From: a virus
Lineage: Duplodnaviria > Caudoviricetes
Direction: 5' to 3' (one strand)
Length of the DNA: 64,000 nucleotides
Virus record (IMG/VR): IMGVR_UViG_3300010998_000021
Span: 32,001-96,000 of that record
The stretch's first letter is position 1; each line of letters starts with the position of its first letter. A model generated the notes under the pieces. The model ran no database searches and was not told the DNA's origin. It saw only the letters and a list, made by a program, of their open reading frames with translations. This document shows, one piece after another, positions 3,001 through 44,516 of this stretch. The translations under genes and the position numbers were made by a program.

Positions 3001-5115
3001 TCTTCTTCAAAAGAACTATATTCTTGGTCGAAACCTTCTATGATGTCTTTTACTCTATCTTTGCCTTTTCCGCTTTCCATATCATCGTAAACGGATTTAA
3101 GACCAGCGAGTGAGTCAGAAAACTCGTTAAGCATATCGCCTGACTTTTCAACACCATCAAATTCATAACCATATGCTTCAAGTGCGCTTAATACTGTTTC
3201 GACAGCACCAACACTAACTCCTAATTTATCTGCTGCTTCTGCTGTGGAATTAAATTGTGATTCTATATCCCACAATCCTTTATCGTCTGATTTGTTTACG
3301 TTAAATAATCCGGCATCTGCGAAATCGTCTACTGCATTCATCATAGACTGCGTTTCATCTTCACCAAACCATCTTTCAGCTTTTGCTAATCCTTGTTCAA
3401 ACGCCTCTTGATAAACATCGGCAGCATAGCCTCCGGCTTCTTTTGCTTCTTTAGCTTGTTTCTTTAAATTCTTAGGACTTAGGAACTGCGCGATAGATTG
3501 GAAATCGTCTGTTCCTGTTTTTCCTTCTTCGAGAAGTTCTTTTCCTTTCTTTACGGCTGATTGAATTGTAGACCAACCAGCGTCTTGGTCTGCGGATTTA
3601 GACGCTTCTTCTACGTCCTCGACAGATACTCTAAAACTATCAAGTTTATTTGTAGCACCATCGATTTCTTCTGAGGCATCTTTAAAGTAATCTCTTAATT
3701 GTTTATAATTACTTATGCCTAAGTCATCCATAGTCAAACCGACTTCGCCTAAAGCCTGTTTTAGATTCTTACCCTCTTTGACGGAATCTCGCAAATAATC
3801 TTTAATTGCCCCTTTTCCTTTGCCATCAAAAAAGTTTTCAAGATTATCTAATGCTTTTTCAGCAGGGGTCATGTCAATTTGTCTGAATCCTTTTGCAATA
3901 TCATTTACATCTTCAATGTATTTCTTTGCGTAATCAGAATCAGCACCATATTTCAACATGGTATCAGCTTGGTCTTGAATGATGTCAAGATAACCAGCCG
4001 TTTCAGCGGTAGCTTGTGAAATCTTAGAGTTTAAATCTTCCCTTTGTTTAATTTCTTGATCTGTTAAATTACCTGATTTCTTTGCTAATTTTTCATCTAA
4101 ACGACTTGATTCTTCTTTTAACGAATTGAGACTTTCAAGAGATTTTCTGGCAAGGTCGATGTTTGTTGTACCACCTTCTTCCCAAAGGTCTTTTTCATCT
4201 TTTCCAGTGTATCTTCCGTTTTCATCATAAACAGCTTTTTGGCTTGTAATATAATCCCAAACAGAAGCAATACTGCCGAACACGCCTTCGCCGTGTTGTC
4301 CTCTAATATGCTCCCAATAAGACTTTTCCGCTTTTGAAGCCTGTTCTGTATCTACTAAAGCGGTTTTCTTTTTCGATTCAGCAATCTTTTCTTGAATTTT
4401 AATTTGATTCTCAAGTTCTGCACTTGCCTCTGATAATCTTGAAAGTTCTGCTTCATCCACAAAGTTTAGAGTTGTATCACTCGCTTCAACTTTATTTATT
4501 ATATCATCAACAGTATCAGCACCTTCTACTTCGATATTGTATTTAAGTGCTATACCTTTTGCTTGCTCAAAGTTTTCACCTTGTTTGCCTTGAAGAGATT
4601 CAAGTTTAGACTGTGCATCTTCGTATTCTTGAACCGAAACTTCTGCTTGATCTTGCGCTCTTGTCCAACCAGAATTAAGATAGTCAAATCCTTTATAAGC
4701 ACCAAAAGCAACTGCTGCTGCTATTAGCGGAGCAGCCATTGTAGCCATACTTGCTAAACCGCTACCAAACGCTCCTATCCATGTCGCACCATCTTTAAAA
4801 GCAGAAACCACGCCCATAATGCCCTTGGCAAGCGTACCACCAACAAGTAAAGTTCCGACTAAACCTATCTTGTCTGTTATTGCATCAAATACTCCAAGTA
4901 TACCAGTGAGTCCATCTAAGACTGCACCCATGTCACTACGTTGGAATAGATTTTGCCAAATGCCTGTACCTGTTTCTTTAAGAGCATTTAGTTTGTATGA
5001 TATTGAATTTGTTATGATTTCCATTTCTGCGTCTGCTGCGCCAGCAGAAGTGGACATCTTTTTTATTGCTTCTTCGGCTTGTGAAAAATTGGAAATTACG
5101 GCAGCACCAATTTGT
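1..5115 (-). CDS. Tape measure protein, exon 4 (runs off the window start)
   Basis: Begins (A)QIGAAVISNFSQAEEAIKK and is in the same frame at the window edge (..AILGLHAMN). Coiled-coil, Gly/Ser linker at ~1280-1410 and a GTAHARG..ELGRELVVR motif typical of large siphophage TMPs. Absent from the ORF track, consistent with no stop codon inside the window. Confidence 0.9.
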
Positions 5116-14188: not shown

Positions 14189-15426
14189 GCTACATTCTCC
14201 TTGATATTGAAAAAATCACCATGACATTTCTCTGGCGATTTGCGTTTCTCTTCGTTAAATTTTTCAAATGTTATATATTCAAATTCATAACCACGATATT
14301 TATGATTTTTAGAAATCCCAACTCTTAAATTTTTCAATGTGCAAATATTTTTATCTAAGAATAAATGATTGAATACGTCATTTGATTTATGATAATAATT
14401 ATCGTTTGTTTTGCAATAAATTGGTCTATCTTGAGTAAAATCATATTTACACCAACCGAATTTCATTCCTTGCTTAACAGCTCTCTTTATAACATCATCA
14501 TAAACTTTAAAATGCTTTGCAATTTGTTTCTCTGTTAATAATGGATTATCATCATGATATTTTGCTACTTGATAATAAAAATTAGATGTAGCAAATTCAT
14601 CACATTTCCCCCAATCAATATCAAATTCATTAATACCCACATCCGATAGTAGTCTTGACGAGATTATTGAATTTTTAATATAATCACAATCTGATATTGA
14701 ACAATCAATTTGATAGTAATGGTTTATGCCATTTTCAATTGCAAGAGTTTGTTTCGTATAATCATTTTTAATATTTTCTTCGAGAGTGGTTCTGAATGTT
14801 TCTTTCCCTTTATAATGTTGCGAACCATGCATTTCAATTATGAAAGTTTCTTCATTATAAACAAAATAATAATCATATCGTTTATAACCACTCCATTCAA
14901 ATTTCATTTCTGGATTAAAATCAATATTTAATTGAGATAATAATTCGAACATGAATTTATTCGGATAACTTTGGTTGTCATTACATATACATGCTATTGA
15001 ATGATGCGAAGCGATTTGCATAGGTGATTTCATTTGAATGTTTTTACAATAAGGACATTGTATCAGTGTCTTTTCTTTGCAATACTTCGTGTGGGTATAA
15101 ACATATTCTTTGTCAATTATATATTTGACCATCCAAGGGGCAGTAGTAGAAATATCATTAAAACCCCTCAAAACTTTTTTTGCTCCAGAACAACATACAT
15201 TACATCCAGAGGGATTCTTTTTAGATGAAAGTTTACTTTCTTCAATCCAATCTTCATTATTACAATTCAAACAACAATATTTATACCATTTTTTAACGCT
15301 TTTTGTAGCGGTTTGACTCTTAGACCTGTTTACATTATTTGACCTTTGTTCTCTGCCTATAATGATAATATTTCTATTATGCGTATTTATTATATCACCA
15401 ATACTGTATTTAAAATCGCCCATCAT
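14185..15426 (-). CDS. Free-standing Zn-ribbon + Vsr-like endonuclease
   Basis: GCNVC..GFNDI, SYPN, YDYY..IIEMHGSQHY. Confidence 0.75.
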   Translation of the reverse strand: MMGDFKYSIGDIINTHNRNIIIIGREQRSNNVNRSKSQTATKSVKKWYKYCCLNCNNEDWIEESKLSSKKNPSGCNVCCSGAKKVLRGFNDISTTAPWMVKYIIDKEYVYTHTKYCKEKTLIQCPYCKNIQMKSPMQIASHHSIACICNDNQSYPNKFMFELLSQLNIDFNPEMKFEWSGYKRYDYYFVYNEETFIIEMHGSQHYKGKETFRTTLEENIKNDYTKQTLAIENGINHYYQIDCSISDCDYIKNSIISSRLLSDVGINEFDIDWGKCDEFATSNFYYQVAKYHDDNPLLTEKQIAKHFKVYDDVIKRAVKQGMKFGWCKYDFTQDRPIYCKTNDNYYHKSNDVFNHLFLDKNICTLKNLRVGISKNHKYRGYEFEYITFEKFNEEKRKSPEKCHGDFFNIKENVA

Positions 15427-15506
15427 AAAACTACCCCGAATTATCTTGTATTATTTATATAATATCAAATCGAAGAATATATAACAAGTATTATCGTGTA
15501 TAATTT

Positions 15507-15612: not shown

Positions 15613-15983
15613 CCATTGTGTTAAGGAATATTCGCTATATATTCCCAAGCGTATAATACGCTTCTCGTACTTTCATACGAAGTGCAGACTATATCTTCAT
15701 CCTTGCGGATGCCTACCACTTCCACCATCAATAGCTTATGGTGTACTCCTTACGGATAGTCGTTGAACTTTACTCTATTCGAGTCTTAGCTGCTGGTTGC
15801 CCATTATTCCAATACTTAGGATTTAACCTTATATCATCTATATATTTCTTTCAGCTTTCGCAACATTCACGCTTAGACTTATTTCATTCTTACGTTGTAG
15901 TATATATAGCTTTAGGGTTTTTCAGCAATTCAATAGGTTATCTTATCACGCACATTTCTGTACGCGCACACTATCATTATTTA
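15613..15983 (-). mobile_element. ORF-less group I intron (371 nt) in the major tail gene
   Basis: P1 CACAU/GUGUG with U.G pair, P GAATTGCTG, Q AACCAGCAGC, R CAACGACTA, S AAGATATAGTC, terminal G at 15613. Confidence 0.92.
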
Positions 15984-31401: not shown

Positions 31402-33735
31402 TTATTTAATTGTTGCCAAAGATTTGAACGTAAGAACGCCAGCAACTCCATCTACTTCAAGATTATATTGCTTCTGATATGTTTTTAATGCTTTAATCAT
31501 TTTATCGTTTGCAACCAATCCATAAGGTTCAATTCCATTAATATATAAACCGATTCCGAGAACAGTTGCGAGATCGCTTTTAGTGTTCAACATTACAACA
31601 TATTTCTTTAAAGATGATTCCGTCTTTGCGCCAAAAATGCCATCTACAATTAATCCACAACCATGTGATCTGTTTAACGCTGTTTGAATAGCTTTAATAA
31701 ATGCTTTCCTTGTGTTCTTTCCGTATTCGCCATCAACTTCGAGATTTGCATGAATATAATTGTTCAGGTGTACTTGACCGCATTTTACGAGATTTAACTT
31801 TTTATCTTTATTGATTTCTATATCTGTAACAAAAGGTAATCTATAAGCACAAACAAATCCGTTTATTGGTTCAACGAACGGTTGATTGCTTTTTAATCTT
31901 GCATCAGAACCACCGTCATATCTTTCATACATTCCATTTTCCTTTTTATTCCCGACAAGGAATACATGACCTGTTAAGAATACAATGTCACCAGCTTTAA
32001 CCTCTGTCAACTTTGTTATTTTCTTAACACCTTGATAATTAGAAAGATATTTTTCCAATGCACCAACATTTCTATTTCCAACATCTTTTAATCCGGCATT
32101 CCATAGGATCATGTCAACAAGCCTGTCACAAGATGCTAAATGTTCATATTTATATACAGACGGTAAGAATGCAGCATTTCCATAATTCCATCCTTTTACA
32201 TAATCGGTTGTCTCTTTAGCTATTTTAAGGAAACCAGATACATTTAAGGATAATTTAGAGTTTTTAGCATCTTTTAGCAATTCATTTAAAGCCTTGTCAG
32301 ATTCATTTCCGTAAATGCCATCCTCTTCAAGTCCACAAGATTTCTGTAAAGCTAACACAGACTTTTCTGTTATATCACCGAATGAACCATCACAAAACTT
32401 AGAAGGATTGCTATAATATCCACAGTCAGCAAATCCCACAAGAAGGAGATTTTCTTGCAATGTCTTTACGTCATTGCCGTTCATTCCTTTCTTTAAATAG
32501 ATTTCCTCTACATAGTCATATCTTGGTCTACCAAATCCGGCTACCCGATTTCCATTTCCGACTTGTGCATAACTATAAGAGTGTCTCGCAACGCAACCAC
32601 CATTAGTTGTAAATCCATCTGAATTTGTATTACCTTCTATAGTATGTACGATCTTAGATGATTTATCTACACTTTCAACGTATCCTACATGGCATATTCT
32701 TCCCATAGAGGATGAATAGAAATAAATGACATCGCCTTTCTCTGGTGTAGTATACCACCTTCCGGCGTTTTTAAAGTAAGATGAGCCATCAGGAGTGTAT
32801 CCAGTCATATAATTTCCAGAATTAGTTTGGCATAAAAACTCCTTTGCGTTAGCAATGCTACCTGTTACCTCTACGGCAACACCATCCACAAAATACTGAC
32901 ACCATTGATCCCCGTTCCCTGCTCCTGCTAACGGTTGAAATTTTTGATAATTTCCACTTCCTGCATCGGCAGTAAATGATTCCATATCAGCACTCGCATG
33001 ATTTTTCTCTCTATACCCTATATAATGTTTTGCTCTTTCAATAATTTTTTCTGCTGTAATTCCCATACTATCTACCGCCTTATCTTGACTTACATCAGAT
33101 GAATCTACATACTTTTCAATAAATTCTTTACATTTTTGATGGCGTGACCAGAATAAAGAATCGCCTACTTGGTTATTAGATGATTTATCGTTTTGGTCTT
33201 TCTTTAAAGAAGCCATTATTGCATCTAAACTATAATCACCTTTACAACGATTAAAGATTCTTTCAGCCGGATTCTTACCACCTAAATGTCTGATTTCGCA
33301 ATACATCATGATTGCTCTGATATCTTTTGTATAATTTGATTCACAATCAGAAATAAACTTCTTCATCAGTTCGGCAAATAATTCATCTTGACATTTCTTT
33401 CCAGTATCAGTTGTTATTAATCTGATAAGGGTATTCTTCTGAGAAGAAGTAGGATTCCAACGAATCGCAACCCAATCCTTAGAAAGCATAGACTTGATTG
33501 AACCATTTGAATCAATTTGCTCAAATTCACTTGGATTCGCATCATAAATCAGTTGAATTAACTTCTTAGCTTCAGAACCATAGTTTTGCGCCCATCCAAG
33601 TGTTACTGTATATTCTTTGCTTGTATTTTCAAACTGTCCTGCATACGCATCGTATCTGCGATTGCCATAAATCTGACCACCAGATTCAACAGCACCGATA
33701 ATGTTTACGAGAACGCCCATGTTTTTACTATTCAT
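31402..33735 (-). CDS. Multi-domain peptidoglycan hydrolase/endolysin
   Basis: Lysozyme-like N-terminus (VESGG), CHAP domain (WCQYFV, HVG, EGNT), several DG.(F/Y)G..T peptidoglycan-binding repeats and a second Cys/His domain (SCD..GHV). Confidence 0.85.
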   Translation of the reverse strand: MNSKNMGVLVNIIGAVESGGQIYGNRRYDAYAGQFENTSKEYTVTLGWAQNYGSEAKKLIQLIYDANPSEFEQIDSNGSIKSMLSKDWVAIRWNPTSSQKNTLIRLITTDTGKKCQDELFAELMKKFISDCESNYTKDIRAIMMYCEIRHLGGKNPAERIFNRCKGDYSLDAIMASLKKDQNDKSSNNQVGDSLFWSRHQKCKEFIEKYVDSSDVSQDKAVDSMGITAEKIIERAKHYIGYREKNHASADMESFTADAGSGNYQKFQPLAGAGNGDQWCQYFVDGVAVEVTGSIANAKEFLCQTNSGNYMTGYTPDGSSYFKNAGRWYTTPEKGDVIYFYSSSMGRICHVGYVESVDKSSKIVHTIEGNTNSDGFTTNGGCVARHSYSYAQVGNGNRVAGFGRPRYDYVEEIYLKKGMNGNDVKTLQENLLLVGFADCGYYSNPSKFCDGSFGDITEKSVLALQKSCGLEEDGIYGNESDKALNELLKDAKNSKLSLNVSGFLKIAKETTDYVKGWNYGNAAFLPSVYKYEHLASCDRLVDMILWNAGLKDVGNRNVGALEKYLSNYQGVKKITKLTEVKAGDIVFLTGHVFLVGNKKENGMYERYDGGSDARLKSNQPFVEPINGFVCAYRLPFVTDIEINKDKKLNLVKCGQVHLNNYIHANLEVDGEYGKNTRKAFIKAIQTALNRSHGCGLIVDGIFGAKTESSLKKYVVMLNTKSDLATVLGIGLYINGIEPYGLVANDKMIKALKTYQKQYNLEVDGVAGVLTFKSLATIK

Positions 33736-36928: not shown

Positions 36929-38371
36929 CTATATATAAACAACCATTTCTTTATTGGCGCAAACGACCTTATATGTCTTGTTATTTTTAGATATTTGTTC
37001 TCTAAGATTTTCTGCCAAGCAACATTTAGAAGATTCAGAACCATGCACAAGTATGAGTTTAGTTGTATTTAATGAACTCCCGTATTTAACAAGGTCATTA
37101 TGATCTGCATGACTGCTAAATGTTGACAAAGAAATGCAGTCTGCTTTGTTCGGAATGCGCTCTTTGTTAATACTTATAGTAGAACGGTTGTTATAATTTT
37201 TAATTCTATATGAAAGATATGACGGATTATCACCGACATATCCTGAAAAAATAATCATGCTATTGGTATTTTTAAGATGCTTTTTCAAATAATTAACAAC
37301 TCTTCCGTTTGTACAAAAGCCAGAAGATGATATAACAATCTTTGGTTTGTTATCAGCGATGTAAGACTGAGACAATGCCTTATCTGAAACAAATTTTACA
37401 TGTTTCCATTTGCGAACTTTGTTCCATAAATTTAAATTTTCTCCGTCTAAAATGCACGAATATAAATCACTTATTTCGCAACTAAGTTTTGAATCAACAA
37501 TAATTTCAGTATTAAATGCATCATCATTATGGAACAGAATATATAGATTAGTCAGTAGTTCCTGTGTTCTACTAAAACTAAAACAAGGAAGGATAACACT
37601 TCCTTTTCGCTCGATAACTGTATTGATTGCCACCCTTAAATGTTCTAAATCAAATTGTCTACTTTTCTTTGATAATCGCTTATCACTCCCATATGTAGAT
37701 TCACAAATTGTAACATCTGAAAAAGCGTCTGGTATTTCTGTATTTGGAACGTAATGATTATCAGTTTTTAATGAACCTAAGTCTGAAGTATATAATATCT
37801 TTTTGGTTTTTAATTTTCCTTTCAGTATTAGCTGTAATTGCGCTGCGCCTATACAATGCGAATTTTTTAACCATTGAAAGCCAACTGTATCATTAAGATT
37901 TATTATCGTATTATAATCATCGTATTCATACACAAGTTTCATTGTTTCTATTACATCATTTTCTGTATAAAGCGGATTGTATACTCTATGGTATTTCTTA
38001 GATAATAGTCGTGCTTCTTCATTCAAGATATATGAACTATTTAAAAGAAGTGACTTCATTATTTTTGCTGTATTACTTGTGACTATTATTTTCCCACTGA
38101 ACCCTTCTTTGACAAGCCGAGGAATTAAACCAGTGTGGTCTATGTGAGCATGGCATACAAATACGAAGTCAATATCTTTTGGATTAAACTTAAATTTTTC
38201 ACTATTAATCCTATAGCTGTCTAAATAGTCATTGCTACTTGACTGGTAGAGTCCACATTCAAGAAGTATTTGACAATCACCAAATCTGACAAGGTACTGC
38301 GATCCAGTTACTTCTATTGACGATTGACCTAAGAAGTATATGCCATCACGTTTATATTTCTTTTTTGCCAT
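36929..38371 (-). CDS. Metallo-beta-lactamase/beta-CASP ribonuclease
   Basis: EVTGS, HAHIDH, SHCIGA, ESTYG, FSSHAD, LVHG. Confidence 0.88.
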   Translation of the reverse strand: MAKKKYKRDGIYFLGQSSIEVTGSQYLVRFGDCQILLECGLYQSSSNDYLDSYRINSEKFKFNPKDIDFVFVCHAHIDHTGLIPRLVKEGFSGKIIVTSNTAKIMKSLLLNSSYILNEEARLLSKKYHRVYNPLYTENDVIETMKLVYEYDDYNTIINLNDTVGFQWLKNSHCIGAAQLQLILKGKLKTKKILYTSDLGSLKTDNHYVPNTEIPDAFSDVTICESTYGSDKRLSKKSRQFDLEHLRVAINTVIERKGSVILPCFSFSRTQELLTNLYILFHNDDAFNTEIIVDSKLSCEISDLYSCILDGENLNLWNKVRKWKHVKFVSDKALSQSYIADNKPKIVISSSGFCTNGRVVNYLKKHLKNTNSMIIFSGYVGDNPSYLSYRIKNYNNRSTISINKERIPNKADCISLSTFSSHADHNDLVKYGSSLNTTKLILVHGSESSKCCLAENLREQISKNNKTYKVVCANKEMVVYI

Positions 38372-38405
38372 ACAATTACCGCCTATTATTTCGTAATTTT
38401 TAAAA

Positions 38406-38495
38406 CGGCGAGAGTAGGATTTGAACCCACGAACCGCTCAACACGGTTTTCTGTTTTCAAGACAGACGCTTTAAACCAAACTCAGCCATCTCGCC
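38406..38495 (-). tRNA. tRNA-Ser(TGA)
   Basis: Cloverleaf with long variable arm; anticodon loop CTTGAAA. Confidence 0.92.
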
Positions 38496-38506
38496 AATCT
38501 GATAAA

Positions 38507-38591
38507 TGGGTAGAGTAGGAGTCGAACCTACGATGTTTCCAATGTGCCAGATTTACAGTCTGGTGCAATCGCCAACTATGCATACCTACCC
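38507..38591 (-). tRNA. tRNA-Tyr(GTA)
   Basis: CCAGA-CTGTAAA-TCTGG, variable arm, GGTTCGACTCC. Confidence 0.92.
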
Positions 38592-38593
38592 AT

Positions 38594-39038
38594 GAATAAA
38601 TGCATAGCGTCTTTATAGAAAACTGAATAAATATAATCCAACCAATTATCATTGATAATACGTAGTAGTTTGTTACGTTCTATCAATTATCTTCTAAGCA
38701 CTCAAATATAGAATTATCCAATAAATAAGAATAATAAAAGACTGTATCGCTGGTTGAATTATCGAATATTGTAAGAATGGATTCTGAAAGTGAGTAGGAC
38801 GTATAACGGAAAGCGCGAAACGCTTATCGATGTGTTTTGCATATAACCTATCTGATATTTTCCCAATCCAAATCTATGAAAATTATCGGGCTTGTTGTTC
38901 ATCAAACATAAATTTTTTAAATGTAAAACAGATTTACATGGCATAAGGGATACCGCCCACGCAGCCTTATATTTCATCTGCGTCTGAAACGATTGAATTA
39001 CAAAATTCAGTTCTCAATAAAGACACTATGCATTACTC
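38594..39038 (-). ncRNA. Candidate large structured ncRNA (~445 nt)
   Basis: The two ends form a ~30-bp stem (39005-39034 with 38599-38628) whose G.U pairs work on the minus strand; no credible ORF. Confidence 0.65.
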
Positions 39039-39090
39039 CAAATATTGAAATGTTATAATTCCATAAATGGAAATTTCTTGTTATATCTAT

Positions 39091-39726
39091 TTATGAATTT
39101 AAATTTTTAGCATATGATTCAACAACATCCTCGAAACTTTCACCGATTTCAAAGATTGGCTCATAGTCAACTTTTGAATGTAGTTGCATTTCATCAATGG
39201 CATCTGATGTTTCATCTAATTCATGTCTAAGCCGTGAAATCTTACCCTTGATTAAATTCCTATCGAAATCAATGGTTGTTACTTGCTCTATATCATATTT
39301 GTACTGGACTTGTTCACCGTCTGCATTAAACTTATCAGATTCGCCTTTTATAGTAGACTCTGATGCTTTCAATCCTGCCATTGTTTCATAAGTCCTTAGT
39401 ATATTTCTCTTTTTATTATTCATAGCAATCATGGCATCATAAGATTTATCTTCGTATGATTTTGCCTTATTTATTGCATGTGTTAGATAATCAATCTCGT
39501 TGACAAGAATATCTATAAAGCTAACAAGATCATTGATTCCATATGGATGTTCAACTTGTTTCTTTACAACAATTACTTCATCTGTTGCTTCTGAATAAGA
39601 TTTTTTACGAAGATGTTTCTGTGTCGTAGTTGTAATATTGTCTCGATAAGATAATACTGATAATGCACTACTGAGCAATTCTGATAAGTAATTCTGATAC
39701 TCGAATGATTTCTTTAACGTAATCAT
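39091..39726 (-). CDS. Coiled-coil protein resembling the DIP1984-like family
   Basis: AGGAGG RBS; 211-aa helical pattern (L..AINKA.., FD..L..KI..L..E.DE.S..ID). Confidence 0.65.
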   Translation of the reverse strand: MITLKKSFEYQNYLSELLSSALSVLSYRDNITTTTQKHLRKKSYSEATDEVIVVKKQVEHPYGINDLVSFIDILVNEIDYLTHAINKAKSYEDKSYDAMIAMNNKKRNILRTYETMAGLKASESTIKGESDKFNADGEQVQYKYDIEQVTTIDFDRNLIKGKISRLRHELDETSDAIDEMQLHSKVDYEPIFEIGESFEDVVESYAKNLNS

Positions 39727-39978
39727 TTCTTTCCTCCTGACTCATATATTGTTATAACTATTTATTCAAAACTTTTCTGAAAGCGCACCCGATACAGAGC
39801 GAATCCTACACCGAGTACGCAAACAAGAAAAGAGAGAGATAAAGAAAGTGAAAGGGCAATCATATATTCCCTTCATATCACGGAATTATAAAAGTGTTAA
39901 AGTACACGTTAAAAAACACGCAAAAATAGCCACTTTGAAGCAATATAGAAAATTATTGAGTAAAATTGCTGTGCGGAA

Positions 39979-40845
39979 TTATTTTGAATTATTTCTTGAA
40001 CGTTGTTTTCTTTCTCTGTCTTTTGCTTTTCTATATTCAGACTGACATTTTTGACAACGAACGGTTTTATTATTTGTTGAACTAACTATAAATGCATTAC
40101 CACAGTCAACACACGTAACTACTTTTGTTTTAATTGGTGTGTATGTAGCACAGCAATCGCAATATTTCTTGTTATGAAATTTATTATCTTTTACAAGTCT
40201 GCCACATTCTGCACACCTTATAAAGTCACCACCTTGATATAAAAGATATTCATTTCCAAGTTCTCTAAAATCTGATATATGTAATGTCTTTTCATCATCG
40301 TCATCTATAAACAAAACTTGTAAATTGAGGTTATCAATTCTATTCGCAAATTTTACCATGCCTTTTCGTATAAGATCACCGATGCGCTTTGCCCTTAATT
40401 TATTAGCACATTTAACACCAGCCATATCAAATATATCCTTAATTTCAAAATTAACCCAATTATTATTTTTTGCAAACTTTTGATTTTGATATTTTGCAAG
40501 ACACAACATAGTAAAAGCAAGTTTTTCGAGAATCGTGTTTTTTAATTCAGATATCGTTTTTAATTCACATTTTGTTACCCATACACCATCTGATTCAAAT
40601 AGTGGATATTTATTTATAGTTGCAACAATTTTTTCTATTGTGTCACTCCATTCACCCATGCTTGCAGTATATCTTGGATAAGTAGATTTTAAAAAATCGT
40701 GTAACATTGTGCGTATTTCTTTCTTTTTTATGCCGATACTATAATAGTATTTAGCAAGAATAATAACAGTAATGTATGGATTGTCACCAATATCATTTTT
40801 TCTTAACCGCTCATTCGCATATTCACTTTCGTTAAGTATAATCAT
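39979..40845 (-). CDS. Zn-ribbon protein of the RNA polymerase operon
   Basis: C-terminal CxxC pairs and a basic tail. Confidence 0.65.
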   Translation of the reverse strand: MIILNESEYANERLRKNDIGDNPYITVIILAKYYYSIGIKKKEIRTMLHDFLKSTYPRYTASMGEWSDTIEKIVATINKYPLFESDGVWVTKCELKTISELKNTILEKLAFTMLCLAKYQNQKFAKNNNWVNFEIKDIFDMAGVKCANKLRAKRIGDLIRKGMVKFANRIDNLNLQVLFIDDDDEKTLHISDFRELGNEYLLYQGGDFIRCAECGRLVKDNKFHNKKYCDCCATYTPIKTKVVTCVDCGNAFIVSSTNNKTVRCQKCQSEYRKAKDRERKQRSRNNSK

Positions 40846-40852
40846 TTAAGAA

Positions 40853-41758
40853 TTACTCCTTTACTGAATTTAAATTTTTCATAGTAATAATATCGTTCTT
40901 TAACATCCTCAAAATATCACTGTCATCTTTGTTTCTGAAATTTTCTGTAATCCTAAAATCATCTATATTATCTTTTAAAATATTTTTCTGTTTATTTAAT
41001 ATGGCTTTAACCTTACAAATTTTAACATAATCCGTCTTACTATTAATATCTGGATGAACACGAAATTCTCCATCAAATATCGAATATACAAATTTTAATC
41101 CATAACCAATTCTCAATTCGGATATATCATCAAAATCAAAATCAAAATCATCATTTACACCATATAAGGCTTTTAGATAAAAGATGAATGATTTTGTTGC
41201 TGACAATGTATTAAACGCCTCTTCTGTAATCTGCACAGTATCGTCACTGTCAATATCGACAAAGATTAAACCAGAATATCGTGTTGTGTTAAATCTATGA
41301 TATACATTCAAAATCAAATCATTTTCATCAAAATAGCGTTTAGTATCATCGCAATTAAAGACATCGTTCCTACATCTTGAATAATTTAGCAACCCCTTGT
41401 TATATATATTTACATAACTGTTATTATTCATCAATTCTGTGTCTAAAAAATATTTCTGAACAAAAACATCAGAATCACATTCTGCAACGTTATAACCATA
41501 CAGAGGGTTATTTGTGAAATATCTGCGTATCATTTTTGTCTCAACAGACTTAGCTTCTTTTTCTGTATTAAACTCACCTATTAAAATATGTTCAATATTT
41601 TGCCATCCATATTTTTGGATAGCATTCCATATAAGAGGTTGATAACTGTAACCAATTCCATTTTTCCCAAATCTCGTATTTAAATCTTTGCACGTATATC
41701 CATAATACCTTTTTCCATTTGGAAACAGATGAAGATAAACTTTATGCTTATTATTCAA
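40853..41758 (-). CDS. GIY-YIG domain protein
   Basis: VY..YYG.T..RF..AIQKYGW..E..GYN. Confidence 0.75.
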   Translation of the reverse strand: MNNKHKVYLHLFPNGKRYYGYTCKDLNTRFGKNGIGYSYQPLIWNAIQKYGWQNIEHILIGEFNTEKEAKSVETKMIRRYFTNNPLYGYNVAECDSDVFVQKYFLDTELMNNNSYVNIYNKGLLNYSRCRNDVFNCDDTKRYFDENDLILNVYHRFNTTRYSGLIFVDIDSDDTVQITEEAFNTLSATKSFIFYLKALYGVNDDFDFDFDDISELRIGYGLKFVYSIFDGEFRVHPDINSKTDYVKICKVKAILNKQKNILKDNIDDFRITENFRNKDDSDILRMLKNDIITMKNLNSVKE

Positions 41759-44516
41759 CTATTACCACCTCTGTCTCTATCATAGAAAATCCAATTCCTT
41801 CATATTGAAAATCTGGATGTTCATCACAAAATTTAGGGAAACAGATTTTGTTGTTTTTGTGTTTCAATAAGTTTTTAATAATTTGTTCACCACATATATC
41901 CCAAGCAAACTGTTTTGTTGAGTTTTTCCCATAACATATATCAAGAACTATATTACACAATTCTTCCTCATTGGTACATATCACTTCACATTCAGCACGA
42001 AAAACATCAGCTATTTTTTGTTTCTCTGCTGTAATATCGTCAAATCTTTCTAAACGCGCACGTTTACGAAGTTTATCAAGTTTCATTATATATGTGTTAT
42101 ACATATTCATAATTTGATTATAGTTTGCTTTTGAATATGTCGTCTCTGATTTCATTATGTTATAATCAAATAAACTTGAATTATTTATCTTTCTCAAATA
42201 ACCGCTGAACTCATTTTCAAAAATCCAACTAATCCTATTTACAACACATGGGTTATATCCAACTGGCAAGAGCATATAATAATAATTCAAAAATTCTTTT
42301 TCGTCTTTGGTTAATGAATTTGAAACCAATAATTCATCAATTCCTTTAGAGAATAACGAATATGATTTAAAATCTACATTCTTAACAAAAATATCGTATT
42401 CCTTTTTTAAATGTGGATAGACGTAAATCATAAAGTATGGTTTTCGATCAGCTACAATGCTCATATTAAAATGTTTCCGCTCTATGGTTTCTTTGTCATC
42501 ACCATCTTTAACAACATTTGGTCTGCGGCTATACCATTCATCTGGCATCGGCTTTGCAATAATTCCTTTTGCCCTGTCGATTGTACATTGCTGATAATGC
42601 TGACCACACATAATCCTATCGCTTAATTCGTTATATGCTTCGTCTGTTAATTCGGCATTTGCCTGTCTTTCAATCATTGTTGTTACACGATTAGTAACTG
42701 TCCCTATGTCATCATTAAAAGCTAACTTGTTAGAAGCTATAATGGATTTATCATCTGGAATTACCTTATCAGCCTTATGTTGCACACATACTATAGTTGG
42801 AGAGTTTTTCGTCCTGCGAAGAATAATCGGATTATCTGTATCCATATTAGTATCGCCATCTTTGTCTTGTCCGTTCATGGCGTCACAAGTTGTATCCCAT
42901 GCGTTCAGAATAATAGCAGTAGTGATGTACTGATACCAATGCTTTACATTTTCGTCTGCATTCAGTTTTAACTTGCGTATATTATTATGGCATGTCATAG
43001 GCGCACGAAAACACGACAATTCTTTAGAACCTTTATCAATCCAGTATTTATGATATAGTTCTCCTGATTTTAATAACCCTGTCACTTCCAAGCCATACAT
43101 GCTCTGACATAGTGCATAAGGATCACCAGAAATCATAGCATAATTTGCTTCAATAGATATTACGCCTTTTTTGGCATCGTTAATCCGCTTGCTAATCATG
43201 GTCATGATACGCTTATGAACAAACGGATCGTTTATCATTTGAGGTTCAATCATCAATGCGCGAGAAACATAATCAAAGTTCTCAGAGCCAAAACCAGCAA
43301 ACACATTTTTGCTGTTTAATCCCATTCCGCAAAGAAACACGATTGCTTTCCTATAATCCATGCCGAATATATCTTTAATGCTGTCGATTGTCGGTTTGCA
43401 AAGTTCATATAGTTCAGCATCATCAAATTCATAGCTCTGTAAAAATTGATAATTTGTATTGTGGATGTGTTCTAATTCCATAGGAGTTGTCTTTGTCGCA
43501 GAAAACTCATAGTGGTTATTCTGACAGTTTTTGTAGAAATCCTCCCAATTTTTATAACCATCCCATAGTTTTAGCATTGACGTTGTAAGTATCACATCTG
43601 CTTCTCTGACATCGCGATCATCGCCCCATGCGTCCTTGATAATATAAGTTCCTGCGACCTTTTCCGCGAACTCTACAAAGTCAAAAGTATAAACCATTCC
43701 TTTTGTCCACGCATAGCGACAAGTAAATCCAGATAAGGTTTCATCTTCAATATCGTTTAAGAAAAGATTTATCTTCTTTGAATATTCTGGTGACATCAAG
43801 CCATAGCCATCAGAATCGTTGTGTTCGATTTCATAATTTTCAACATGTGTTAATGTTGGTTTTCCTTCATTGGCATCATCTATAAGAATTACATTGTCCG
43901 TAAAATGTGTAATACAGTCATTAACTACAATAATTCCTTTCGGTTCTGGAAGTGCTACAGAGCCAGAACACACAAGAGCCTGATATGCCTCTAATTTTGC
44001 AGGAACTAAAAGCTGCTCTTTATTTCGTCCATTATCAATTCTTTCCTGAAGCTGGTCATGAAGTCTTTTACTTACATAGACGATAGTTGAATTTTTAATT
44101 CCCCCGTTTGTTCCAAGAAGTCTTTTATATTCAACACCGTTTACAGTGAAACCTTTTGAGTTCAGGAGATCATAATCTTTATTACTATCCATAACCACAC
44201 AGAGATAATCTTTTTGATATTGGATATCGTAGAGCGTTTGATATAAATTGCGAATTAATGCTTTTGTTTCGGGTGAACGCTTTCTCTTTTTTACCTGTTT
44301 CATTTTCCGTTTGATTTCTTTTGCTTTATCGTCAGAATCCAATGCGTTATTAAACTCATCAATGAAGCGCAAAATCTGGCTGTCGTTTAAAGATATGATA
44401 CACTCTGGATAATCGCGCATGGCAACATCTAAAGGAAGTTCATATTTATAATTTGATTTCCTTATGTCTCTTGAATGTAATTTATAAACAAACTTATGGC
44501 ATCGTTTTTGTTCTAT
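41751..44516 (-). CDS. YonO-like single-subunit DNA-dependent RNA polymerase (probable ATA start)
   Basis: Catalytic D-x-DGD (GQDKDGD), CFRAP, SDGYG and KGM motifs; GGGAGGT RBS 7 nt before ATA. Confidence 0.85.
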   Translation of the reverse strand: MEQKRCHKFVYKLHSRDIRKSNYKYELPLDVAMRDYPECIISLNDSQILRFIDEFNNALDSDDKAKEIKRKMKQVKKRKRSPETKALIRNLYQTLYDIQYQKDYLCVVMDSNKDYDLLNSKGFTVNGVEYKRLLGTNGGIKNSTIVYVSKRLHDQLQERIDNGRNKEQLLVPAKLEAYQALVCSGSVALPEPKGIIVVNDCITHFTDNVILIDDANEGKPTLTHVENYEIEHNDSDGYGLMSPEYSKKINLFLNDIEDETLSGFTCRYAWTKGMVYTFDFVEFAEKVAGTYIIKDAWGDDRDVREADVILTTSMLKLWDGYKNWEDFYKNCQNNHYEFSATKTTPMELEHIHNTNYQFLQSYEFDDAELYELCKPTIDSIKDIFGMDYRKAIVFLCGMGLNSKNVFAGFGSENFDYVSRALMIEPQMINDPFVHKRIMTMISKRINDAKKGVISIEANYAMISGDPYALCQSMYGLEVTGLLKSGELYHKYWIDKGSKELSCFRAPMTCHNNIRKLKLNADENVKHWYQYITTAIILNAWDTTCDAMNGQDKDGDTNMDTDNPIILRRTKNSPTIVCVQHKADKVIPDDKSIIASNKLAFNDDIGTVTNRVTTMIERQANAELTDEAYNELSDRIMCGQHYQQCTIDRAKGIIAKPMPDEWYSRRPNVVKDGDDKETIERKHFNMSIVADRKPYFMIYVYPHLKKEYDIFVKNVDFKSYSLFSKGIDELLVSNSLTKDEKEFLNYYYMLLPVGYNPCVVNRISWIFENEFSGYLRKINNSSLFDYNIMKSETTYSKANYNQIMNMYNTYIMKLDKLRKRARLERFDDITAEKQKIADVFRAECEVICTNEEELCNIVLDICYGKNSTKQFAWDICGEQIIKNLLKHKNNKICFPKFCDEHPDFQYEGIGFSMIETEVVIVE

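Follow-up and report, generated by a model that had tools for sequence, protein, structure and literature searches.

New classes of large, complex-folded RNA are rare in bacteria and phages, and to our knowledge each one so far (OLE, GOLLD, ROOL, and raiA) has opened a line of work. Several described systems combine such RNAs with proteins or with tRNA genes. Type III toxin-antitoxin loci carry a tandem-repeat RNA array upstream of an endoribonuclease toxin, and Ro60-Y RNA operons encode a noncoding RNA (ncRNA) beside the protein gene. The tRNA cluster of phage T4 yields small stable RNAs (species 1 and 2, or rnaC and rnaD), ncRNAs without an assigned function that are cotranscribed with tRNAs and released by tRNA-processing enzymes. 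According to published reports, Y RNA is closed by a long stem of its 5′ and 3′ ends and the Ro60-Y RNA system is associated with RNA-repair genes (PMC4201824, PMC7790460), OLE is a large structured RNA with a dedicated Oap protein partner encoded adjacent to it (PMC3413148), and GOLLD and ROOL form RNA-only assemblies (PMC12286853). Here we describe a locus that shares features with each of these systems, in a 64,000-nucleotide (nt) stretch of DNA (the window) that forms part of a 111-kb uncultured phage record estimated to be 72% complete (Caudoviricetes; IMG/VR record IMGVR_UViG_3300010998_000021, positions 32,001 to 96,000). On the minus strand of the window, a gene for a 211-amino-acid (aa) protein is followed by a 436-nt RNA whose ends pair with each other. 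Related phages and Clostridia genomes show that this gene and this RNA stay together through inheritance, loss, and insertion, and that selection acts on the RNA structure of the gene strand.

The structured RNA in the window

The gene and the RNA lie on the minus strand in the order 288-aa gene, 250-nt intergenic stretch, 211-aa gene, 56-nt spacer, 436-nt RNA, 6 nt, tRNA-Tyr, tRNA-Ser, and beta-CASP nuclease gene. The parts of the cassette are as follows.

39091 to 39726, minus strand: gene for the 211-aa putative partner protein (open reading frame [ORF]; helical with two beta-hairpins, DIP1984/3KDQ-like fold, isoelectric point of about 5)
39035 to 39090, minus strand: 56-nt spacer from stop codon to closing stem, with a small local hairpin
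38599 to 39034, minus strand: structured RNA, 436 nt from stem to stem (fold and inverted repeat)
39005 to 39034, minus strand: P1 closing stem, 5′ arm (18 and 11 bp on either side of a single mismatch)
38599 to 38628, minus strand: P1 closing stem, 3′ arm (inverted repeat and predicted fold)
38991 to 39002, minus strand: P2, 5′ arm (predicted 12 bp with 38632-38643)
38632 to 38643, minus strand: P2, 3′ arm (predicted fold)
38959 to 38990, minus strand: H-type pseudoknot (helix A, 38990-38985/38976-38971; helix B, 38983-38978/38964-38959; from the family alignment)
38644 to 38958, minus strand: variable interior with several predicted hairpins (fold)

A first-pass annotation, made by a model from the letters alone, had reported that the ends of a noncoding stretch after the 211-aa gene pair over about 30 bp. 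This pairing is real: the inverted repeat 38599-38628/39005-39034 has 30-nt arms that are 90% complementary and 376 nt apart, it is the sole inverted repeat of at least 16 nt within 38300-40000, and it forms the closing stem in both the minimum-free-energy and the centroid structures. The distances given earlier needed adjustment, from about 50 to 56 nt for the spacer, from about 445 to 436 nt for the RNA, and from 2 to 3 to 6 nt for the gap to tRNA-Tyr. Read on the minus strand, the three non-Watson-Crick positions of the repeat are two G·U pairs (A·C on the plus strand) and one U/U mismatch. The minus-strand sequence 39045-38593 folds at −121.7 kcal/mol, compared with −85.97 ± 4.89 kcal/mol for 100 dinucleotide shuffles (z = −7.31), none of which equaled it. 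The RNA is present in one copy in the 111-kb record, no tandem repeats were found in its region, and ARAGORN detected no tRNA-like element inside it.

Comparison with Rfam, which the first-pass annotation had named as a check, left the RNA unmatched: the window RNA had no match at gathering score or at an E value of ≤10, and 15 of its relatives matched no family at an E value of ≤1 in a search that did detect a GOLLD RNA beside one of them. A BLAST search of the region against 50,697 phage records matched the tRNAs alone. The best candidate for an antisense target in the phage genome was 15 nt long and on the same strand (E = 0.037), with the others no longer than 13 nt and none usable.

Cooccurrence of the gene and the RNA

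Loci were gathered through the protein, in 80 of 106 viral stretches and in 38 species genomes, the latter mostly from Lachnospiraceae, Oscillospiraceae, Ruminococcus, and other Clostridia. Within 1,100 nt past each stop codon, we recorded the best stem spanning 250 to 700 nt and applied a threshold score of 18. This score was reached or exceeded in 89 of 91 distinct full-length regions downstream of homologues sharing 28 to 73% identity (median score, 26; maximum, 43), compared with 6 of 91 shuffles and 5 of 84 natural upstream regions of 1,100 nt. The stem begins at a median of 15 nt past the stop codon, and within 30 nt in 73 of 87 distinct RNAs; the RNAs span 291 to 533 nt (median, 449 nt), with G+C contents of 21% to 59%. 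One of the 84 upstream control regions (loci L044-L160) scored 158, a very long inverted repeat that may reflect either misassembly or a genuine hairpin element.

Patterns built on the RNA alone led back to the gene. A strict pattern identified 15 viral loci, every one with the gene directly upstream (40 to 71% identity). A looser pattern yielded 70 loci, comprising 44 with gene and stem, 4 with the gene and a weaker stem (one of them truncated), and 22 with neither, which are chance matches; none of the 70 had the stem without the gene. The cassette also occurs on contigs titled as a Candidatus Absconditabacterales metagenome-assembled genome (MAG; L136) and as several Bacteroidales MAGs, and these contigs binned outside the Clostridia are probably phage contigs.

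Selection on RNA structure

The two ends of 69 non-redundant members were aligned, and G·U and A·C pairs were scored alike. The terminal helices comprised 2722 Watson-Crick, 378 G·U, and 128 A·C positions; because G·U exceeds A·C, the structure is assigned to the gene strand. This excess agrees with the first-pass reading that G·U pairs, found at two of the three imperfect positions of the window repeat, fix the minus strand. P1, which is 20 to 43 bp long across the family, is specific to each member: pairing with a member's own arm had a median of 26.5, compared with 8.0 for the arms of other members, and the own arm was the best partner in 62 of 69 cases.

An alignment of 38 members over 41 columns just inside P1 and P2 revealed an H-type pseudoknot near the 5′ end, in which 94.9% of cells are paired, compared with 23 to 44% when the partners are slid. 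Both sides changed in 5 of the 12 pairs (for example C-G, G-C, and U-A at one position), and none of 500 shuffles reached the covariation score. Distant members have the same interleaved helix arrangement with other sequences. Folding z scores ranged from −4.3 to −10.8 in all 16 sampled members, and the sense strand was the more stable one in 11 members, matched its complement in 3, and was the less stable one in 2. No family-wide sequence motif was found in the RNA interior.

In 28 of 69 members, the 5′ arm of P1 can also pair (≥6 bp) with sequence at or just past the stop codon, compared with 7 of 69 in a mirror control at the 3′ side. This alternative hairpin, which often forms around a UUCG-like loop (e.g., L127, L092, L063, and L120), competes with P1, and it suggests a folding switch coupled to translation in which the terminating ribosome would free the arm for P1. 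In the window the corresponding pairing is 4 bp, which is background level.

Taken together, these results show that selection maintains the structure as an RNA of the gene strand. They also bear out the first-pass proposal that gene and RNA may be one undescribed unit, for which a covarying closing stem downstream of homologues had been named as a check: the stem is present in 89 of 91 regions, its pairing is kept as the sequence changes, stem and pseudoknot carry compensatory changes, the RNA was never found without the gene, and no Rfam family matches it.

Gain, loss, and insertion of the cassette

The beta-CASP gene led to 27 related phage loci, of which only 6 encode the protein. In one phage without it (L002, whose beta-CASP protein is 72% identical), colinearity with the window runs as far as 39742, shortly ahead of the gene start, and resumes at 38380; it keeps tRNA-Ser and is without the 211-aa gene, the RNA, and tRNA-Tyr. 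In a Lachnospiraceae genome (G001; L131:1719-3280), the cassette is a 1,562-nt insertion between purE-type and M29 peptidase genes, and three related genomes with empty sites (G207, G208, and G213; L247, L248, and L249) have the same flanking genes 19 to 29 nt apart. The insertion opens with about 280 nt of sequence upstream of the gene, continues with the gene and, after a gap of 11 nt, the RNA, and closes with a hairpin that precedes a T-run. It contains no further gene, integrase, transposase, or reverse transcriptase (RT), and neither terminal repeats nor a target duplication longer than 8-mers. Its boundaries do not coincide with the inverted repeat: one lies about 280 nt ahead of the gene, the other about 125 nt past the RNA. 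The cassette is therefore self-contained. These comparisons show that inheritance, loss, and insertion each involve the gene and the RNA as one unit.

Related phages without the cassette (L014:2826-3675, L016:2775-3675, L017:2359-3664, and similar loci) have tRNA genes upstream of the beta-CASP gene that are separated by gene-free gaps of 850 to 1,300 nt. These gaps matched nothing in Rfam at gathering score, and they may hold other undescribed RNAs.

The partner protein

The 211-aa protein matched no Pfam (E ≤ 0.01), PHROG, NCBIfam (E ≤ 10), or PADLOC family. Its relatives form 94 clusters at 90% identity, and a profile of 24 members matches 955 clusters at 50% identity with E ≤ 1e-3 (715 at 1e-10), nearly all of those listed being 200 to 220 aa long. 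A scan of viral contigs with the single protein sequence gave no match, and an alignment-based scan succeeded. No fused or longer forms appeared among 7,996 candidates scored, which is weak evidence as to their existence.

The first-pass annotation had likened the protein to the DIP1984-like coiled-coil family, a likeness that holds for the fold and fails for the sequence. The AlphaFold (AF2) model (predicted local distance difference test [pLDDT], 90.6) has long helices and two beta-hairpins. Among 48,161 chains compared with VIA-align, the best was 3kdq_A (Z = 10.0; 146 of 152 residues; root mean square deviation, 4.7 Å; model residues 1 to 187), which was also the only solved-structure match across the whole chain, a Z score of 10 being moderate for a helical protein. 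Foldseek compared 3KDQ with the model at a probability of 1.00, template-modeling scores of 0.44/0.57, and an E value of 0.047. 3KDQ itself belongs to DUF6847, the "DIP1984 family" of NCBIfam: it matches a DUF6847 protein at E = 2.5e-32, and the DUF6847 protein used for comparison scores 180.6 bits on NF038048. At the sequence level, none of 24 family members matched PF20935 at E ≤ 1, and hhalign against a genuine DUF6847 member gave a probability of 0.4%. Nor did genuine DUF6847 genes have a comparable downstream closing stem in any of nine Clostridia genomes. No nuclease-like fold was seen for the protein in the structure searches.

Modeling of two copies suggests that the protein is probably a homodimer. 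The two-copy model scored 0.54, compared with 0.00 for the best of three controls; among proteins of solved structure, the mark used for such models is passed by 20 of 30 that form pairs of one chain and by 1 of 23 that are single chains, counts that hold only roughly here, as a custom alignment was supplied. Runs agreed in at least 96% of contacts, with a partner pLDDT of at least 85. The modeled interface consists of strand 30-40 and hairpin 142-155 and includes several invariant residues.

Transcription and processing

Contigs of 281 to 434 nt with 95 to 99% likeness lie inside the RNA in all four RNA-library (metatranscriptome) runs compared, from three studies; such contigs show presence only, not ends, strand, or level, DNA being possible in the libraries, and we read them as compatible with transcription and as nothing beyond that. 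The four RNA contigs end at 38982-38998 and none from the four runs covers 39002-39433, and because contigs show neither ends nor levels we draw nothing from these positions or from the depth of each contig. The contig from one run (X16) enters tRNA-Tyr by 25 letters, too few to count as bridging.

No terminator- or promoter-like site was found between gene, RNA, and tRNA, which fits one transcript processed afterwards. P1 is a plausible RNase III substrate, long near-perfect stems being classic targets of this enzyme. The first-pass annotation had also proposed that RNase P cleavage at the tRNA 5′ end would free the RNA. All six relatives listed from the window clade (L044, L045, L046, L051, L053, and L054) have a tRNA, Tyr or Thr, that starts 3 to 9 nt past P1, and the RNase P cut is a reasonable inference there because of this spacing; such tight adjacency does not extend to the whole family, in which a tRNA lies within 400 nt downstream in 25 of 87 cases.

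Genomic neighborhood

Other features of the window are as follows.

39885 to 39912, minus strand: sigma-70-like promoter match 5′ of the 211-aa gene (TTAACG-16-TATAAT, 10/12; consensus match only)
38506 to 38592, minus strand: tRNA-Tyr (GTA), 6 nt past P1 (ARAGORN, Rfam)
38405 to 38496, minus strand: tRNA-Ser (TGA) (ARAGORN, Rfam; also in L002)
36929 to 38371, minus strand: beta-CASP/RNA-specificity metallo-beta-lactamase nuclease gene (PF10996, PF07521, PF00753; context, outside the cassette)
15664 to 15971, minus strand: group I intron (RF00028, 71.8 bits, full-length model match)

The promoter-like match sits in an intergenic stretch that is also present in the cassette-less phage L002. Across the family, neighbors are very diverse and include homing endonucleases, DUF4241, GP88, and housekeeping genes. 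An Rnl1-type RNA ligase, which adjoins or is fused with a phosphoesterase and a kinase-like domain, lies directly upstream in three loci (L121, L122, and L158), and a HAD "Swiss Army Knife" repair domain lies upstream in another (L071), for a total of 4 RNA-repair cases among 51 upstream neighbors scanned; metallophos genes lie downstream in 4 of 40. In one locus (L057), a GOLLD RNA (RF02032, 172.4 bits against a gathering score of 150; L057:3687-4160) lies about 560 nt downstream of the family RNA, with tRNA-Met between the two and tRNA-Pro after GOLLD, placing two large RNAs in one tRNA locus. A sub-threshold GOLLD match (89 bits) was also seen at L093:3581-4015.

Elsewhere in the window, an 889-aa protein (41751-44420, minus strand), which presumably is a single-subunit YonO-type RNA polymerase by its look, has a weak match to PF05183 (RNA-dependent RNA polymerase; E = 1.2e-07) and strong matches to PHROGs without an assigned function. 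It is followed by a GIY-YIG homing-endonuclease-like gene at 40853-41758. Outside the window, the same phage carries an RT (PF00078, 65.6 bits) at 14835-15428 of the record, adjoining a 124-nt direct repeat pair of 85% identity (L251:2592-2715 and 3256-3379) in the layout of a diversity-generating retroelement (DGR).

Proposed function and alternatives

The explanation that we favor, and regard as fairly probable, is that the locus is one copy of a two-part cassette, self-contained and widespread in Clostridia chromosomes and phages, with an excised RNA that works with the protein. The cassette would consist of a gene for a protein of about 210 aa with a DIP1984-like fold and a structured RNA of about 450 nt directly after it on the same transcript. 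The predicted RNA architecture comprises the P1 closing stem, P2 inside it, an H-type pseudoknot on the 5′ side, and an interior that is variable yet always structured. The RNA would be cut from the 3′ part of the mRNA as a stable RNA, with P1 as a plausible RNase III substrate and, in the window clade, the tRNA after P1 providing an RNase P cut. Once released, it would work with the protein, either as a ribonucleoprotein or as a protein-dependent RNA; the first-pass annotation had suggested RNA-scaffolded assembly, a decoy, or an antitoxin-like pair as possible roles. The likeliest field of action may be RNA-level phage-host conflict or RNA repair, because the neighbors include tRNAs, Rnl1-type ligase/phosphoesterase genes, homing endonucleases, and GOLLD; the case for RNA-level conflict is weak.

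Several observations weigh against this explanation. Two of the 91 homologue loci are without a clear stem, and P2 is only weakly positive in its own test (pairing of at least 7 bp with the own 3′ region in 22 of 38 members, compared with 485 of 1406 cross pairs). The protein is mildly acidic (isoelectric point of 4.9 to 5.7 in all 24 members), which is unusual for an RNA binder, and many of its invariant residues lie in the modeled dimer interface and not on an obvious RNA-binding face. The RNA-library contigs carry the limits given above, and RNA-repair genes adjoin the cassette in a minority of loci, as do tRNAs, which weakens the conflict reading.

A more elaborate form of the favored explanation, which we put forward only tentatively, is an autonomous, horizontally moving RNA-protein system whose RNA is excised by RNase III, RNase P, or both. 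In a third of members, P1 closure would be coupled to termination via the stop-codon hairpin, so that RNA and nascent dimer assemble in cis. The complex might act in RNA-level phage-host conflict, for instance as a decoy, sponge, or guardian toward tRNA-targeting nucleases or RNA-repair enzymes, in the niche that GOLLD occupies.

The RNA might instead be a cis-acting element in the 3′ untranslated region of the protein's own mRNA, serving message stabilization or translation feedback. Its constant position directly past the stop codon, the lack of a terminator or promoter match in between, and the stop-codon hairpin, which resembles a termination-tied switch, would all suit such an element. 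A protective hairpin, however, needs neither 290 to 530 nt nor a covarying pseudoknot nor a 20- to 43-bp stem; the window is without the alternative hairpin; and in the window clade the transcript is processed at the nearby tRNA anyway. We judge this account unlikely.

To about the same degree we doubt a toxin-antitoxin-like or abortive-infection pair, in which protein and RNA would neutralize each other. Such a pair would explain why a cassette of this small size is kept both in phages and, by itself, as an insertion in a chromosome, and the 1.56-kb promoter-to-terminator unit of two parts between housekeeping genes, its patchy distribution among related phages, and the strict cooccurrence of gene and RNA are what it would look like. 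Against it stand the lack of a PADLOC match and of a nuclease-like fold, and a layout that differs from type III systems in that the RNA is downstream, single-copy, and free of tandem repeats.

An element acting at the DNA level (a miniature transposon with terminal inverted repeats, an origin, or a site of recombination) is largely refuted and very improbable: a 30-nt inverted repeat flanking 376 nt and a cassette that is inserted or deleted between genomes would fit it, but the G·U excess, the covarying pseudoknot, the single copy in the phage record, and insertion boundaries away from the repeat, with neither target duplication nor terminal repeat beyond 8-mers, do not. Equally remote is a diverged known RNA family (GOLLD, ROOL, group I intron, Y RNA, or retron ncRNA) or a small protein gene, in spite of the niche near phage tRNAs, a 72-codon sense ORF (38759-38977), and an RT in the phage, since Rfam matched neither the window RNA nor its relatives although it detected GOLLD beside one of them, and the phage record has a single RT, located about 55 kb from the RNA and flanking DGR-like repeats, the chromosomal cassette being without one.

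A small protein was rejected as a candidate in its own right. The longest sense ORFs have a median of 54 codons, compared with 47 antisense, and are unconserved, with 29 to 33 codons in the closest relatives; the sense-ORF peptides of different members are unrelated except in one close pair.

The favored two-part cassette would be of interest in several respects. It is widely spread among Clostridia of the gut and rumen and the phages of these bacteria: the protein forms 955 clusters at 50% identity, and loci come from 38 species genomes and at least 106 viral stretches. According to record titles, cultured bacteria in which the unit occurs alone include Intestinibacter bartlettii N19 and Lachnospiraceae bacterium 48-33. 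As a minimal 1.5-kb unit with an obligatory protein partner, unlike GOLLD and ROOL, it makes function directly testable. The DIP1984-like fold gains its first concrete molecular context, and the tRNA-cluster niche of phages, the purpose of which has long been debated, gains a third large RNA.

Comparison with known systems

No description of the pair was found in the literature on DIP1984, large phage RNAs, and RNA repair, including the excerpted text of 10.64898/2026.09.22.753630. A bulk catalogue of 10,006 candidate RNAs in viruses (PMC10690425, main text in part) has supplementary tables that could list fragments of the cassette RNA.

GOLLD (RF02032) and ROOL are the closest in setting: they too are large, highly structured, so far without an assigned function, and found in phages and prophages beside tRNA genes. 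The cassette RNA differs in that it has no covariance-model match to them, is conserved only at its ends and in the 5′ pseudoknot, with a variable interior, and is strictly tied to one protein gene. We know of no such tie described for GOLLD or ROOL. The small T4 RNAs (species 1 and 2) are much smaller and without a dedicated protein gene. The group I intron model RF00028 matches 15664-15971 of the window and not the RNA.

In its mode of working the cassette would most resemble modules that encode a protein and its large RNA partner next to each other, such as Ro60-Y RNA and OLE-Oap. Among systems with a protein partner, Ro60 (Rsr)-Y RNA likewise places a protein gene beside its ncRNA, but the cassette protein is without the TROVE/Ro ring (no Pfam match; helical and 3KDQ-like), and the cassette RNA is three to four times longer than Y RNA, with neither a tRNA-like domain (ARAGORN) nor an Rfam Y RNA match. 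OLE and Oap likewise combine a large RNA with an adjoining gene for a protein partner; here, in contrast, Rfam gave no OLE match, the protein is soluble and acidic and not a membrane protein, and the cassette moves between genomes and is carried by phages. Type III toxin-antitoxin systems (ToxIN type) are also small autonomous units of protein and structured RNA on phages and chromosomes, from which the cassette departs in the RNA layout, protein fold, and absence of a PADLOC match already described. DIP1984/DUF6847 (NF038048, PF20935; 3KDQ) shares the overall fold with the cassette protein, which is about 60 residues longer and matches none of its sequence models, and DUF6847 genes are without the downstream RNA. 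Every sequence or model test left the cassette outside these systems, and we rate it as new in both of its parts and in its architecture.

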